From assembly GCF_988242995.1 (NCBI RefSeq), contig NZ_OZ547043.1: a stretch of DNA of 64,000 bases; one strand, given 5' to 3'. The notes under the pieces are model-generated. The model made no database searches. It was not told where the DNA came from and saw only the letters and a program-made list of their open reading frames with translations. The translations under genes and the position numbers were made by a program. Positions 880-40,599 of the stretch are shown piece after piece (position 1 is the stretch's first letter; the number at the start of each line of letters is the position of its first letter).

Positions 880-3800
880 ATGGACGTCAGTCGCAGACAA
901 TTTTTTAAAATCTGCGCGGGCGGTATGGCTGGAACAACGGTAGCGGCATTGGGCTTTGCCCCGAAGCAAGCACTGGCTCAGGCGCGAAACTATAAATTAT
1001 TACGCGCGAAAGAGATCCGTAACACCTGCACATACTGTTCCGTAGGTTGCGGGCTATTGATGTATAGCCTGGGTGATGGCGCGAAAAACGCCAGAGAAGC
1101 GATTTATCACATTGAAGGTGACCCGGATCATCCGGTAAGCCGTGGTGCGCTGTGCCCGAAAGGGGCCGGTTTGCTGGATTACGTCAACAGCGAAAACCGT
1201 CTGCGCTACCCGGAATATCGTGCGCCAGGTTCTGACAAATGGCAGCGCATTAGCTGGGATGAAGCATTCTCCCGTATTGCGAAGCTGATGAAAGCTGACC
1301 GTGACGCTAACTTTATTGAAAAGAACGAGCAGGGCGTAACGGTAAACCGTTGGCTTTCTACCGGTATGCTGTGTGCCTCCGGTGCCAGCAACGAAACCGG
1401 GATGCTGACTCAAAAATTTGCCCGCTCCCTCGGGATGCTGGCGGTAGACAACCAGGCGCGCGTCTGACACGGACCAACGGTAGCAAGTCTTGCTCCAACA
1501 TTTGGTCGCGGTGCGATGACCAACCACTGGGTGGATATCAAAAACGCTAACGTCGTAATGGTAATGGGCGGTAACGCTGCTGAAGCGCATCCCGTCGGTT
1601 TCCGCTGGGCGATGGAAGCGAAAAACAACAACGATGCAACCTTGATCGTTGTCGATCCCCGTTTTACGCGTACCGCTTCTGTAGCGGATATTTACGCACC
1701 TATTCGTTCCGGTACGGACATTACGTTCCTGTCTGGCGTTTTGCGCTACCTGATCGAAAACAACAAAATCAATGCCGAATACGTTAAGCATTACACCAAT
1801 GCCAGCCTGCTGGTGCGTGATGATTTTGCTTTCGAAGACGGTCTGTTCAGCGGCTACGACGCTGAAAAACGCCAGTACGATAAATCGTCCTGGAACTATC
1901 AGTTCGATGAAAACGGCTATGCGAAACGCGATGAAACACTGACTCATCCGCGCTGTGTGTGGAACTTGCTGAAAGAGCACGTTTCCCGCTACACGCCGGA
2001 CGTCGTTGAAAACATCTGCGGTACGCCAAAAGCAGACTTCCTGAAAGTGTGTGAAGTGCTGGCCTCCACCAGCGCGCCGGATCGCACAACCACCTTCCTG
2101 TACGCGCTGGGCTGGACGCAGCACACCGTGGGTGCGCAGAACATCCGCACCATGGCGATGATCCAATTGCTGCTCGGTAACATGGGTATGGCTGGTGGCG
2201 GCGTGAACGCATTGCGTGGTCACTCCAACATTCAGGGCCTGACCGACTTAGGTCTGCTCTCAACCAGCCTGCCGGGTTATCTGACGCTGCCGTCAGAAAA
2301 ACAGGTTGATTTGCAGTCGTATCTGGAAGCGAATACGCCGAAAGCGACGCTGGCTGATCAGGTGAACTACTGGAGCAACTATCCGAAGTTCTTCGTTAGC
2401 CTGATGAAATCTTTCTACGGTGATGCTGCACAGAAAGAGAACAACTGGGGCTATGACTGGCTGCCGAAGTGGGACCAGACCTACGACGTCATCAAGTATT
2501 TCAACATGATGGATGAAGGCAAAGTCACCGGTTATTTCTGCCAGGGCTTTAACCCGGTTGCGTCCTTCCCGGACAAAAACAAAGTGGTGAGCTGCCTGAG
2601 CAAGCTGAAGTACATGGTGGTTATCGATCCGCTGGTGACTGAAACCTCTACCTTCTGGCAGAACCACGGCGAGTCGAACGATGTCGATCCGGCGTCCATT
2701 CAGACTGAAGTATTCCGTCTGCCTTCGACCTGCTTTGCTGAAGAAGATGGTTCTATTGCTAACTCCGGTCGCTGGTTGCAGTGGCACTGGAAAGGTCAGG
2801 ACGCGCCGGGCGAAGCGCGTAACGACGGCGAAATTCTGGCGGGTATCTACCATCATCTGCGCGAGCTGTACCAGGCCGAAGGTGGTAAAGGCGTAGAACC
2901 GCTGATGAAGATGAGCTGGAACTACAAGCAGCCGCACGAACCGCAATCTGACGAAGTAGCTAAAGAGAACAACGGCTACGCGCTGGAAGATCTCTATGAT
3001 GCCAATGGCGTGCTGATTGCGAAGAAAGGTCAGTTGCTGAGTAGCTTTGCGCATCTGCGTGATGACGGTACAACCGCATCTTCTTGCTGGATCTACACCG
3101 GTAGCTGGACAGAGCAGGGCAACCAGATGGCTAACCGCGATAACTCCGACCCGTCCGGTCTGGGGAATACGCTGGGATGGGCCTGGGCGTGGCCGCTCAA
3201 CCGTCGCGTACTCTACAACCGTGCTTCGGCGGATATCAACGGTAAACCGTGGGATCCGAAACGGATGCTGATCCAGTGGAACGGCAGCAAGTGGACGGGT
3301 AACGATATTCCGGACTTCGGCAATGCCGCGCCAGGTACACCAACCGGACCGTTTATCATGCAGCCGGAAGGGATGGGACGCCTGTTTGCCATCAACAAAA
3401 TGGCGGAAGGTCCGTTCCCGGAACACTACGAGCCAATCGAAACGCCGCTGGGCACTAACCCGCTGCATCCGAACGTGGTGTCTAACCCGGTTGTTCGTCT
3501 GTATGAACAAGACGCGCTGCGGATGGGTAAAAAAGAGCAGTTCCCGTATGTGGGTACGACCTATCGTCTGACCGAGCACTTCCACACCTGGACCAAGCAC
3601 GCGTTGCTCAACGCAATTGCTCAGCCGGAACAGTTTGTGGAAATCAGCGAAACGCTGGCGGCGGCGAAAGGCATTAATAATGGCGATCGTGTCACTGTCT
3701 CAAGCAAGCGTGGCTTTATCCGCGCGGTGGCGGTGGTAACGCGCCGTCTGAAACCGCTGAATGTAAACGGTCAGCAGGTTGAAACGGTGGGTATTCCAAT

Positions 3801-5524: not shown

Positions 5525-5806
5525 TTGCGTAACCAGACGGCGCAGTCGCGACACATCCACCGTTTTTTCTGCCTCTGCCAGACTCCAGGCGTTTTGCAGA
5601 TTCAGCCACATTTGCGGCGAACTGCCGATCACCACGGAAAGTTTAATCGCCATTTCTGGTGTCAAAGCTGCTTTTCCGGTCAGCAATCGGCTTGCCGTTG
5701 AGGGCGCAATTTCCATTGCTCTGGCAAACTCGCGCAGGCTGACATTAAGTTCGTCCAGTGATTCCTGAATAATGTCCCCCGGGCGGGGATGATTGGCCAT
5801 TTTCAT
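5522..5806 (-). CDS. yddM: HigA-like XRE-family helix-turn-helix protein (putative antitoxin or regulator)
   Basis: Track ORF 5522-5884; start placed at the internal Met ([20 protein letters not shown]...) to give 94 aa as recalled for YddM. Position between fdnI and adhP matches K-12 order. Confidence 0.75.
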
Positions 5807-7095: not shown

Positions 7096-8793
7096 TTAGA
7101 TGGAGGTACGGCGGTAGTCGCGGTATTCGGCGTGCCAGAAATTATCATCAATGGCCTGTTGCAGAGCTTCGGCGGAGGTTTTCACCGCCACGCCTTGCTG
7201 CTGCGCCATTTTGCCAACCGCAAAGGCAATTGCGCGGGAGACTTTCTGAATATCTTTCAGTTCCGGTAGTACCAGACCTTCGCCGTTCAGGACCAGCGGC
7301 GAATACTGAGCAAGCGTTTCACTCGCCGACATCAGCATCTCATCGGTGATACGTGACGCGCCGGAAGCAATAACGCCCAGCCCGATGCCCGGGAAAATAA
7401 AGGCGTTGTTACACTGGGCGATAGGGTAGATTTTATCTTTCCATACCACTGGGTTAAACGGACTGCCAGTGGCGACCAGCGCGTTACCTTCGGTCCAGGC
7501 GATAATGTCCTGCGGTGTGGCTTCCACGCGTGACGTCGGGTTAGACAGCGGCATCACGATCGGACGCGGACAGTGTTTATGCATCTCACGGATGATCTCT
7601 TCCGTAAACAGCCCGGTCTGTCCTGAGACGCCAATCAGAATATCTGGTTTTACATTACGCACCACATCCAGCAGTGACAGCACATCGCTGTCGGTATCCC
7701 AGTCACTGAGGTTTTCGCGCTTCTGCACCAGTTTGGTCTGGAAAGGCAGCAGGTTCGGCATCTTGTCGGTCAGCAGGCCAAAGCGATCAACCATAAAGAC
7801 TTTCTGCCGCGCCGCTTCCTCGCTTAATCCTTCACGCTGAGTCTGGGCGATGATCATTTCGGCAATCCCGCACCCCGCAGAGCCTGCGCCGAGGAAGACA
7901 ATCTTTTTCTCGCTCAGTTGACCACCCGCCGCGCGGCTGGCTGCGATCAGTGTGCCGACCGTTACCGCCGCGGTGCCCTGAATGTCATCGTTAAAAGAAC
8001 AAATTTCATTGCGATAGCGGTTAAGTAACGGCATCGCATTTTTTTGTGCGAAGTCTTCAAACTGCAACAGTACGTCCGGCCAGCGTTGTTTCACAGCCTG
8101 GATAAATTCATCAACGAATTCATAGTATTCGTCGTCAGTGATACGCGGATTACGCCAGCCCATATACAGCGGATCGTTAAGCAGCTGTTGGTTGTTCGTC
8201 CCGACATCCAGCACCACCGGAAGGGTATACGCTGGGCTGATGCCGCCACAGGCAGTATAGAGTGACAGTTTACCGATAGGAATGCCCATCCCGCCGATGC
8301 CCTGGTCACCAAGCCCCAGAATACGTTCACCGTCAGTCACCACAATCACTTTAATATTATGGTTCGGCACGTTTTGCAGAATATCGTCCATATTGTGGCG
8401 GTTCTGGTAAGAGATAAACACGCCGCGTGAACGGCGGTAGATCTCAGAAAAACGCTCACAGGCTGCGCCGACGGTTGGGGTATAAATAACAGGCATCATC
8501 TCATCAAGATGATTGTTTACCAGACGGTAGAAGAGGGTTTCGTTAGTGTCCTGGATGTTACGCAGGTAAATGTGTTTGTCGATTTCGGTTTTGAATCCCT
8601 GATACTGGATCCATGCTCGTTCCGCTTGTTCTTCGATGGTTTCGACCACTTCCGGCAGTAACCCCAGCAGGTTGAAGTTACGGCGTTCTTCCATGCTGAA
8701 GGCACTGCCTTTATTCAACAACGGAAATTCCAGCAGTACAGGGCCAGCGTAAGGAATATAAAGCGAACGCTGTTTTTTTGTTTTTGGTTCCAT
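7096..8793 (-). CDS. maeA: NAD-dependent malic enzyme
   Basis: Track ORF 7096-8829; start placed at [23 protein letters not shown] (565 aa); malic enzyme signature regions; follows adhP as in E. coli. Confidence 0.9.
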
Positions 8794-36772: not shown

Positions 36773-37534
36773 TCAAATAGCTAAAGCACTCATCGTGTTG
36801 TCCGTGTTCATACCGGTGTGCCTTTGACAACGGTACTCCTTCGAAACTCTCTTCGGACTGTTGCCGAAATGTTTGCGGAACGCATAAATAAAATATGATG
36901 TACTCGCATAACCACATTGTTCGGCAATTTTATTGACTGAACCTTCTACGCGTATCAAATTTTTTGCGTGCTGCATTCTGGCATCTAAAAGAATCTGTGA
37001 GAATGTCGTTTGCTCTTGCTTTAGTTTTTTCTTCAACAGGCTTTCACTGATGTACAGGCAGTCACAAATATCTTTCAGCTTCCATGGGTGCGCCAGCTTC
37101 ATGTTGACAATATTTCTCACTTTCCCGGAAACGGATAGCACACCGTTAGTTAATAGTGTAATGAAACCTTTGCATGCGGCAAAAATAGACAGGCAAGAAA
37201 AAAGCAAAAGTTCTGAAAAGTTATGATGATTGCGTTCTTCCGAGTTGAGATAAGCAATCATTTCATTAAGCAATCCCGTCGGTACATTTGAAGCACGTAA
37301 AAACTTCGCAGGAACAGGCACCGTCACTGTCTGGATGTTAGTGCATTGTAGATATTTTTTAATGGTGTTTTCATTAAATCCGATTTCTTTGAAATGCCGC
37401 TCATAAGGTTCAAAATGCGTACGAACAGCGTTATCTACCATCAGGATCTCGCCGTCAGAGAAGGCGTAATCTTTATCTAAAATGTTAGCGTTGAAGGCAT
37501 GATGAATAAATATAACAGAACAAACGAGCGACAT
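36773..37534 (-). CDS. ydeO: AraC-family transcriptional activator of acid resistance
   Basis: 253 aa with C-terminal AraC HTH; downstream of safA in the same orientation. Confidence 0.88.
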   Translation of the reverse strand: MSLVCSVIFIHHAFNANILDKDYAFSDGEILMVDNAVRTHFEPYERHFKEIGFNENTIKKYLQCTNIQTVTVPVPAKFLRASNVPTGLLNEMIAYLNSEERNHHNFSELLLFSCLSIFAACKGFITLLTNGVLSVSGKVRNIVNMKLAHPWKLKDICDCLYISESLLKKKLKQEQTTFSQILLDARMQHAKNLIRVEGSVNKIAEQCGYASTSYFIYAFRKHFGNSPKRVSKEYRCQRHTGMNTDNTMSALAI

Positions 37535-37602
37535 TTTATCTCCTTAAAACAATAAAGTTTTTATCGATACTTTTTTAACATTTCACATTTATAATTTGCT
37601 GT

Positions 37603-37806
37603 TTATTTCCAGTCTTGCAAACTATTGATAATGAAATGTGTAAGATCTCTTGCCATGCGACCCATTTCTGAAATGCCCTGCTGATCAATTGCCGAAAAAA
37701 TGGCTATCAACGTAAGTGTCAGCAACAAGACAACCACAATTACAGACATGATTTCTTTATAGTTGTCTCTTTGCATGATTTTGTTTTTCACTGTGGTCGC
37801 ATGCAT
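37603..37806 (-). CDS. safA: Small membrane protein connecting the EvgS/EvgA and PhoQ/PhoP systems
   Basis: About 65 aa with a single TM segment (IVVVLLLTLTLIAIFSAI); immediately upstream of ydeO. Confidence 0.8.
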   Translation of the reverse strand: MHATTVKNKIMQRDNYKEIMSVIVVVLLLTLTLIAIFSAIDQQGISEMGRMARDLTHFIINSLQDWK

Positions 37807-37917
37807 TTCAAATGTGTTTATTTAGCGGATAACGTTAAAAATCGTTAATCAGTATGATTAATATAACAGGCTGGATAAAAGAGGAAATAGGACTGGCACT
37901 TCAGTACTGAGCGGAGT

Positions 37918-37935
37918 TTCTTACAACTGTAGGCA
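37918..37935 (-). promoter_or_regulatory. EvgA-box-like inverted repeat upstream of safA
   Basis: TTCTTACAACTGTAGGCA resembles the EvgA consensus TTCYTACA-N2-TGTARGAA; about 110 nt upstream of the safA ATG. Confidence 0.55.
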
Positions 37936-38053
37936 GAGGTTTATATCTTATAGTGTGTATTTTAATTTAATCCATGTGAGCAAATTGCGCGATAATAGTC
38001 AATGAGGAATTCTTCTGCTGTGCGGATGACAGCAGAAGAAATGAGGAGGCGAA

Positions 38054-40333
38054 TTAATTTGATGGCTCTAATTCAACAGGAATACTTTTATAGCCAGGAA
38101 TGCCACTTAATGGATCGTGGTTATCAAGTGTTAGCATGTGATTCGATTCTGGAAAATAGGTCACCAGTGAGCGGTCAGCCATAGGGTAAATGACCACTTT
38201 TAATCTATCCATGCGGCGTGAGCTTCGCTTACCGTCTGGCGTAAGCGCAATAAGATTAACTCTTTCGCCGTTTTTTACACGGCAAATTTTAGCTTGTTTA
38301 GCACTCATAAAGACCACATCTCGTTGACCGAATACCCCTCGATAGCGATCATCCATACCATAAATCGTCGTGTTGTACTGATCGTGACTGCGTACTGTCG
38401 CCATGACTAGCTTACTGTTAAACGCTGAAGAGGGATCTTCTAACAGCCCTTTACTGGTAATGAAATTAGCCTTACCTGACGGCGTCATCCAGCGCCTTTC
38501 AGCAGCTGCGTTTATCAGGTGAAAACCTCCAGTATGTCGGATGCGCTGGTTATAGTCGGCGAACTCTGGCAGCACAGCTTCAATGTCATTGCGAATGCGA
38601 TCATAATCTTCCACCAGATACTCCCAGGCTACCACGCTCTGGGGTAGTGCCGCCTGCGCGATACCCGCGACCACTGCACACTCTGATTTCAGCATTACAC
38701 CGGCGGGTTTTAACACGCCACGCGAGGCATGAATCATCGACATTGAATCCTCAACGGTTACCGCCTGCGCACCGCTTTTTTGCATGTCAATCTCGCTACG
38801 TCCCAGAACCGGCAGAATATAGCTATGCCGTGCGGTCAGCAGATGAGAGCGGTTAAGCTTAGTGGCTACGTGTACCGTCAGATCTAATTGTGTTAACGGT
38901 ACAGCGCTCGCTTCCCGATCTGGCATTGCCAGTGCAAAGTTGCCCCCCATGCAGATCAATGCTCGAGCCTGCCCCGTACATATTGCTTGCATGCTGGCAA
39001 TTGCAGCATGTCCAGGTGCATGAGGTGGGGTGAAACCATAGCGCTCACCCAGGCGAGCCAGAAACTCTGCAGACGGTTTCTCGGTGATACCGACGGTTCG
39101 GTCGCCCTGTACATTAGAGTGACCTCGTAGTGGGCAGATACCCGCACCAGGCTTGCCAATGTTACCTTTCATCAACAGCAGATTGACCAGTTGCTGTACA
39201 TTCTGGGTACCATGTTCGTGCTGAGTGATCCCCATTCCGTAACAGATAATGGTGCGTTCGGCAGCGGCATATGCATCAGCCAGTTCGGCGATTTGAGTCT
39301 GACTTAGTCCAGAAATACGTTCGATATCTTTCCACTCGGAATTGAGCACGTCACGGCGTAGCTCGTCAAAGCCGACGGTATGCGTTTGAATAAATTCGTC
39401 ATCCAGCAATGAGGGCCGACCTGCGGCGCTTGCAGCATCATCGCGCTCAATTAACAGGCGCATCATCCCCTTGAGCAATGCCATATCGCCACCAATGCGC
39501 ACGTTATAGTAGGCACTGGCCAACTGAGTCTCAGAGTTCGTCAGCATTTCAAACGGGTTTTGCGGTGCGGTAAATCGCTCCAGGCCACGTTCCTGTAGAG
39601 GGTTGATAGCGATCATTTTCGCTCCCCGTTTCACTAAAGCGCGCAACGAAGTCAGCATGCGAGGGTGGTTTGTACCAGGGTTATGCCCAATGCAAATGAC
39701 TAAATCGCATTTCTCAAAGTCTTCCAGCAACACGGTCCCTTTACCCACACCGATACTCGCTGCCAATCCCACACTGGTCGGTTCATGGCACATGTTGGAG
39801 CAGTCGGGAAAGTTATTGCTCCCGTATTCACGGGCAAAAAGCTGATAAAGAAAGGCAGCTTCATTGGAAGTGCGCCCCGAAGTATAGAATTCAACCTGAT
39901 TGGGATCACTATAGCTTTGAAGGCGAGCGCCAATTTCGTCGAAAGCTTGTTGCCAGCTTAATGGCTTGTAACAGTCGCTGACGTCATCATATTTCAAAGG
40001 CTGAGTGAGACGTCCCGCAGCCTCAAGCTCGTGATCTCCCCAGGTAAGTAATGATTGAACCGTATTCTCAGCAAAGAAAGAGGCATTTACCTGCTTATCC
40101 GTGACTTCCCAGGCGATTGCTTTTGCGCCGTTTTCACAAATGTCGAATGACGCACTGTGCTTAGGATCTGGCCATGCACATCCCGGACAGTCAAAGCCCT
40201 CTGGCTTATTCATGTCAAACATGGCAATAACATCCTGGCGTATATCCATCTGCTTACGTACTGCATTCGCTACGGATTTAACAGCACCCCAACCACCGGC
40301 AGCTCCCTGGTAGGATTCAATTTTTTTCTTCAT
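38054..40333 (-). CDS. ydeP: Molybdopterin-dependent oxidoreductase (formate dehydrogenase-like, acid resistance)
   Basis: 759 aa; N-terminal Cys cluster (CPGCAWPDP), molybdopterin oxidoreductase fold. Confidence 0.88.
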
Positions 40334-40581
40334 CTGCTTATCCTGTGTGGAAATGAATTATTAGGATTTGTAATAGCGATGATGCAAAGTATATACAAAG
40401 GGTTTATCGTCAACATGAATATATAAGAGTAGGGGACTACTCTCTTACTATTTTTACTCTATTATCGTTAAATAATAGAGTAGTATAAATACGATAAGTT
40501 AAGCATCATCTCTCATAGGGTTTAAATTAACATAATTCTCAATATAAAAAATAAGACTCTGGCTTCAATTGTGCGCGGATT

Positions 40582-40599
40582 TTCTTACAAGTGTAGGAT
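40582..40599 (-). promoter_or_regulatory. EvgA-box-like inverted repeat upstream of ydeP
   Basis: TTCTTACAAGTGTAGGAT matches the EvgA box pattern; about 250 nt upstream of the ydeP ATG. Confidence 0.55.

Follow-up and report, generated by a model that had tools for sequence, protein, structure and literature searches.

An EvgA box upstream of the safA-ydeO operon in a segment of the Escherichia coli chromosome

The window (the whole 64-kb stretch of DNA analysed here) carries the acid-resistance operon safA-ydeO, and in front of this operon a preliminary description had noticed an imperfect inverted repeat of 18 bp, at 37918-37935, which it took for a site of the response regulator EvgA. The question raised by this locus is whether the repeat is indeed the element through which EvgS and EvgA control the operon, or whether it is used by another regulator, has no regulatory role at all, or acts as RNA rather than as DNA. 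It is very probably a high-affinity operator of EvgA at the safA-ydeO promoter. The motif, its rarity, its recurrence, its conservation, and the geometry that it shares with ydeP were computed for this analysis; binding and EvgS-dependent induction are taken from the literature.

The box, its locus, and EvgA

The window comes from the chromosome of E. coli: 601 bp around the site, used as a query, match 5379 of the 5426 complete genomes of this species, at best with 99.7% identity (for example in strain SMS-3-5), and the RefSeq annotation under the match names ydeO, safA, and ydeP. YdeO scores 606 bits against NF007407 and YdeP 1830 bits against NF007406, both passing the NCBIfam equivalog cut-off, and SafA is 92% identical to K-12 SafA (67 residues in the window, 65 in K-12). 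The spacer between the stop codon of ydeP and the start codon of safA measures 247 bp (37807-38053); with the gene identities solid and the box inside this spacer, the placement upstream of safA-ydeO given by the preliminary description holds (Table 1). The evgA gene lies outside the 64-kb window. Of the 5426 complete E. coli genomes, 5398 have it, and the safA-ydeP spacer with the box occurs in 5376 E. coli genomes.

Table 1. Features of the ydeO-safA-ydeP region, in coordinates of the window.
Feature	Coordinates	Strand	Description
ydeO	36773-37534	minus	AraC-family activator of gadE; second gene of the operon
safA (b1500)	37603-37806	minus	small membrane connector activating PhoQ; first gene of the regulated operon
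Putative safA transcription start	37852-37853	minus	placed by homology with ydeP
Candidate extended -10	37860-37868	minus	TGtTATATT; spaced from the box like TGtTAATTT of ydeP
TCCTATTT	37885-37892	minus	+26..+33 after the box, roughly -39..-32
Conserved stretch	37899-37917	minus	ACTCCGCTCAGTACTGAAG; directly downstream of the box, largely common to the ydeP promoter
EvgA box	37918-37935	minus	TGCCTACA-GT-TGTAAGAA on the safA strand
Hairpin	38010-38040	minus	13 nt after the ydeP stop codon; perfect 12-bp stem, 7-nt loop, without U tract
ydeP	38054-40333	minus	gene 5' of safA, across the 247-bp spacer
ydeP EvgA box	40582-40599	minus	ATCCTACA-CT-TGTAAGAA (ATCCTACACTTGTAAGAA); same orientation and geometry as the safA box

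On the plus strand the box reads TTCTTACAACTGTAGGCA and on the minus strand, which codes for safA, TGCCTACAGTTGTAAGAA. It is formed by two 8-nt arms around a 2-nt spacer, and as the arms are complementary at 6/8 positions only, it is weak as a bare palindrome; a repeat search with a 6-nt seed did not have it among the repeats listed. Unremarkable in this respect, the box draws its weight from the motif match: it departs from TTCYTACA-N2-TGTARGAA by one mismatch, and also by one mismatch from TTCYTACANNTGTARGAA. The promoter-proximal half matches the consensus perfectly, and the distal half agrees with TTCTTACA at 6/8 positions and with the degenerate TTCYTACA at 7/8. The position is non-coding, with the centre of the box 120 bp and its end 111 nt upstream of the safA ATG, and the gene that follows is one whose activation by EvgS/EvgA is described in the literature.

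The string TTCYTACA-N2-TGTARGAA, taken as the EvgA consensus, was then reproduced from K-12 promoters, the motif being re-derived on 63 kb from K-12 that surround reported target genes of EvgA; frc, yfdX, and yegR, reportedly among the targets of Masuda & Church and Itou et al., were included as presumed ones. For emrKY and ydeP, direct regulation by EvgA is documented (PMC8174306). At up to two mismatches the pattern is found in these 63 kb upstream of safA, ydeP, emrK/evgA, frc, yfdX, and yegR, in an orientation common to all of these promoters; the frc site is a perfect palindrome, and yfdX has a second site with three mismatches, 38 bp from the first. The one intragenic exception lies inside mdtE (7887-7904 of the K-12 gadE locus, L003), where it is, with two mismatches, the sole match of that 16-kb locus; upstream of gadE itself, no box is found in these 16 kb at up to three mismatches. 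Activation of gadE by EvgA is also stated in papers. A leave-one-out weight matrix, built from the six other K-12 target sites with safA left out, gives the safA site 23.7 bits and the ydeP site 24.5 when run over the 64 kb, the third-best 18-mer of the window reaching 9.2 bits and the maximum of 200 shuffled windows 21.0. With this score and its single mismatch, the imperfect repeat does match the EvgA consensus, as had been proposed.

K-12 EvgA combines a receiver domain (Response_reg, E = 2e-27) with a helix-turn-helix of the GerE/LuxR type (GerE, E = 8e-22), and matches NF007419; it is a member of the NarL family (PMC9496106), and the box, a dyad with 8-nt arms, has the form of an operator for a NarL/FixJ regulator of this build. 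A review (PMC9496106), citing Itou 2009 for the K-12 promoter, has EvgA bind the safA-ydeO promoter directly; an EvgA site is described as present at all directly regulated genes (PMC4283999), and PsafA-gfp is used as a read-out of EvgS/EvgA activity (bioRxiv 10.64898/2026.05.06.723403). The direct binding, together with the same motif at other EvgA-activated K-12 genes, ties the operon to EvgS/EvgA. This link, also drawn in the preliminary description, is correct and already established, and it is likewise already known that the site is orthologous to the EvgA box of K-12 safA/b1500.

A different member of the NarL/FixJ family that recognises a comparable half-site, for instance RcsB on its own or in a heterodimer, might use the box instead of EvgA or together with it, and the core TAAGAA presumably resembles part of the RcsB box; the full 18-bp pattern, however, recurs where EvgA control is the common denominator, emrK/evgA included. 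EvgA does match the RcsB model, though weakly (67 bits, below cutoff), and loss of RcsB abolishes the acid induction of ydeP and gadE just as loss of EvgA does (PMC7174508), but emrKY and ydeP share no regulator except EvgA according to EcoCyc (PMC8174306), and the direct binding at safA-ydeO is assigned to EvgA in PMC9496106. We consider a role for RcsB or a relative very unlikely, and retain EvgA as the regulator of this site.

Rarity and conservation of the box

At up to one mismatch to TTCYTACANNTGTARGAA, two matches are found in 64 kb, compared to 0.00 in 100 dinucleotide-preserving shuffles, and at up to three mismatches the same two, compared to 0.81 expected; they are the safA box and the box upstream of ydeP (Table 1).

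The conservation of the box was followed through variation within the species and through one divergent lineage (L007, with a YdeO that is 93% identical). Within E. coli, the safA-ydeP spacer is unusually variable, far more so than evgA: it is 90-95% identical in 3089 E. coli records, and evgA at least 99% in 5146. An alignment of 16 distinct E. coli alleles, spanning the observed range of spacer identity, has 46 variable columns out of 247, and the only ones inside the box are 37926 (a spacer base) and 37935 (the outermost base), leaving 15 of the 16 specified positions invariant. At 37935, T is replaced by C in two of the 16 alleles; 37926 is T in the window and in one other allele and C in 14/16, including K-12, and the spacer of the box is GC rather than GT in 15/19 alleles when L005-L007 are counted. 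This within-species conservation is not significant, and because 61/230 random 18-nt frames of the spacer are equally conserved, it was rejected as independent evidence. The divergent lineage is more telling: its box reads CGCCTACAGTTGTAAGAA and is followed by 11 nt identical to those of the window, and the sequence a few bases upstream of it is unalignable without gaps; the box is kept amid scrambled flanks. A scan of 100,044 species genomes based on YdeO returned only four loci, all of them E. coli-like, which fits the confinement of safA-ydeO to E. coli and Shigella (PMC9496106).

Among the loci compared, one (L006, JARKOR010000108.1) comes from a metagenome-assembled genome labelled 'Candidatus Nanosynbacter'; it has ydeP-safA-ydeO with a YdeO 99% identical to that of E. 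coli and with both EvgA boxes, and is almost certainly an E. coli contig placed in the wrong bin. In another, from Escherichia sp. MOD1-EC7003 (L008), all that can be detected of ydeO is its last 22 codons, and the EvgA box is absent; safA-ydeO appears to have been deleted, in a manner reminiscent of strain MP1 (PMC5706723).

A fortuitous resemblance to a short, degenerate motif, devoid of any regulatory role, could look like an imperfect palindrome that a repeat search misses, and it would be conserved within the species no better than background, as is the case here; yet matches at up to one mismatch are entirely lacking from the 100 shuffles, the leave-one-out score lies above all 200, the one further match that the window contains belongs to the promoter of the co-regulated ydeP, where it has an identical orientation and lies equally far from a shared -10 element, and the box is conserved in the divergent lineage while its flanks are not. 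Coincidence is thus an extremely improbable explanation, and the reading of the box as an EvgA operator is maintained. That the inverted repeat forms an RNA hairpin (a terminator or a processing site in read-through from ydeP) instead of binding a protein as DNA is barely conceivable and was rejected on folding and on the Rfam result: the box does follow ydeP on the strand that codes for it, and ydeP-safA-ydeO is regarded in some papers as a single unit (PMC11052181), but the two nucleotides of its spacer are unable to make a loop, folding of the 38-nt region yields -2.2 kcal/mol (z = -0.12; 82/200 shuffles fold as well), the region has no Rfam match, and the real hairpin after ydeP is located elsewhere.

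This hairpin (Table 1) lies between ydeP and the safA promoter and folds with a dG of -17.5 kcal/mol and z = -5.2 relative to shuffles; a terminator scan of 37500-38100, which covers the hairpin, was negative. In the divergent lineage (L007, about 3005-3035), its stems are identical to those of the window and its loop is ACGGATG, one base apart from GCGGATG, the reverse complement of the window loop CATCCGC; this looks like an inversion of the hairpin loop.

Promoter layout at safA and ydeP

The ydeP box precedes the ATG of this gene by 248 nt. Compared from the boxes onward (37858-37935 and 40522-40599), the promoters of safA and ydeP show homology over ~60 nt downstream, with an ungapped identity of 27-28/41 in three lineages; they look like a duplicated EvgA-responsive cassette. 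The stretch that directly follows the safA box has one variable column (37911) in the 16 alleles, and the 11 nt that it shares with the divergent lineage are its first. Further downstream, TGnTA..TT occupies +50..+58 after the box in both promoters, as part of the candidate extended -10, which in safA is conserved in the 16 alleles and reads TGcTATATT in L007; a -10-like hexamer is found 52-60 nt after the box in 6/6 K-12 EvgA promoters. A promoter scan of 37500-38100 found nothing; such a scan depends on a -35, an element missing from this activator-dependent promoter.

For ydeP, a 178-nt leader is used in PMC11210196; in K-12, this length makes the first nucleotide an A, 66 nt beyond the box and 7 nt beyond the hexamer, and places the centre of the box at -74.5. 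By homology, we infer a start of safA near 37853, which would give a leader of ~47 nt and a box centred at about -73.5, and would put the safA box in the position relative to the core promoter that is also taken by the ydeP box. A -10 at +36..+41 was considered and rejected for both promoters: in safA this hexamer reads TCTTTT and is not conserved in L007, and in ydeP, where it is TATATT, the 178-nt leader fits the hexamer at +53..+58 instead. In yegR, TATAAT stands at +37..+42 after the box.

The most likely mechanism would start from EvgS, the sensor kinase, which would phosphorylate EvgA at mildly acidic pH. A dimer of EvgA would then bind the two inverted 8-bp half-sites (TTCYTACA), 2 bp apart, at 37918-37935; centred ~73.5 bp upstream of the safA start, it would recruit or stabilise RNA polymerase at a promoter with an extended -10 (TGtTATATT) and without a recognisable -35. 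The safA-ydeO mRNA produced in this way would yield SafA, activating PhoQ, and YdeO, activating gadE. Within this scheme, we infer where transcription starts, that the box lies at -73.5, and how polymerase is contacted. The box is the entry of the EvgS/EvgA acid signal into two circuits, one leading from YdeO to GadE and glutamate-dependent acid resistance, the other from SafA to PhoQ/PhoP and RpoS; descriptions of this wiring in K-12 date from 2003-2009 onward, and the box indicates that it is intact in this strain. The practical value of the site is that of a positive control, a true and experimentally supported operator that was located to the base from sequence alone.

With all K-12 EvgA promoters anchored on their boxes, the columns C9, A10, T26, C27, and T31 are identical in 6/6, and A30 and T32 are common to 5/6. 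Because safA/ydeP and frc/yfdX look like paralogous promoter pairs, only about four of the promoters are independent, and the excess of identical columns is thus only suggestive. The conserved CA at +9/+10 corresponds to 37908-37909 in the window. The element TCYTATT, over the -35 region, lies 42 bp from the same bases in the distal half-site, and in safA, where it is represented by TCCTATTT, it may serve as an additional half-site for EvgA or stand in for a -35. TC..ATT, which is kept at the same distance in 6/6 EvgA promoters, four helical turns from the distal half-site, could be a second EvgA contact. The combined proposal, by which the promoters of safA and ydeP would be two copies of a cassette of ~80 bp (box, CA at +9/+10, TCYTATT at +26..+33, extended -10 at +50..+58) with TC..ATT as a second, low-affinity contact of EvgA over the -35, is a tentative one, possible but rather doubtful. 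The shared cassette and the conserved element near -35 are mildly new, although published footprints may already cover both, and those of Itou 2009 may already show the second contact.

The surroundings of the box contain further sequence similarities. The 9-mer CACTATAAG (37947-37955; 5543-5551 of locus L002) has its start at exactly 20 nt from the safA box of the window and likewise from the emrK box of K-12, in both cases on the upstream side; read from the other strand it is CTTATAGTG, similar to a -10, and K-12 safA has TACTATAAG in its place. The safA leader and start codon (37804-37851) contain three PhoP-box-like matches at up to three mismatches, against 0.9 expected, and a direct repeat TTAACG-N4-TTAACG is found at 37848-37833. 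PsafA is reported to be repressed by PhoP and subject to feedback by YdeO (bioRxiv 10.64898/2026.05.06.723403), and the PhoP-like cluster could be related to this repression; a YdeO-like box over the safA ATG (37785-37813) is a single match at chance level (0.4 expected). With mild enrichment for the one and chance-level matches for the other, PhoP and YdeO boxes are not claimed as the explanation of PsafA repression.

Comparison with known EvgA and BvgA sites

The EvgA box of K-12 safA (b1500)-ydeO (NC_000913.3 1584071-1584088) is orthologous to the one described here: it is identical at 16/16 specified positions and ends 111 nt before the ATG, as in the window, differing in its GC spacer, which is GT in the window, and at a few positions of the nearby flanks. 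The ydeP box shares with the safA box the perfect promoter-proximal half TGTAAGAA, the orientation, and the downstream module of ~60 nt; it differs in the distal half, which is ATCCTACA rather than TGCCTACA, and in its leader of about 180 nt, compared to about 47 nt in safA. The K-12 sites of emrK/evgA, frc, yfdX, and yegR are the same 18-bp inverted repeat TTCYTACA-N2-TGTARGAA as at safA; unlike safA, however, frc has a perfect palindrome, yfdX has two boxes, and the emrK/evgA box serves a divergent region, and in all four the sequences between the box and the -10 are otherwise unrelated to safA.

The sites of BvgA, for example in the fha promoter, are inverted repeats of a TTTCCTA-like half-site located well upstream of the core promoter, and BvgA fills the DNA down to the -35 with further dimers. 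Its operators belong to a different organism and a different regulon from the safA box; BvgA of Bordetella is the homologue after which EvgA was named (PMC9496106). At safA, the conserved TCYTATT near -35 is the sole sign that hints at further dimers of this kind; if the second contact were true, EvgA would activate by cooperative occupancy in the manner of BvgA, rather than by a single upstream dimer alone.
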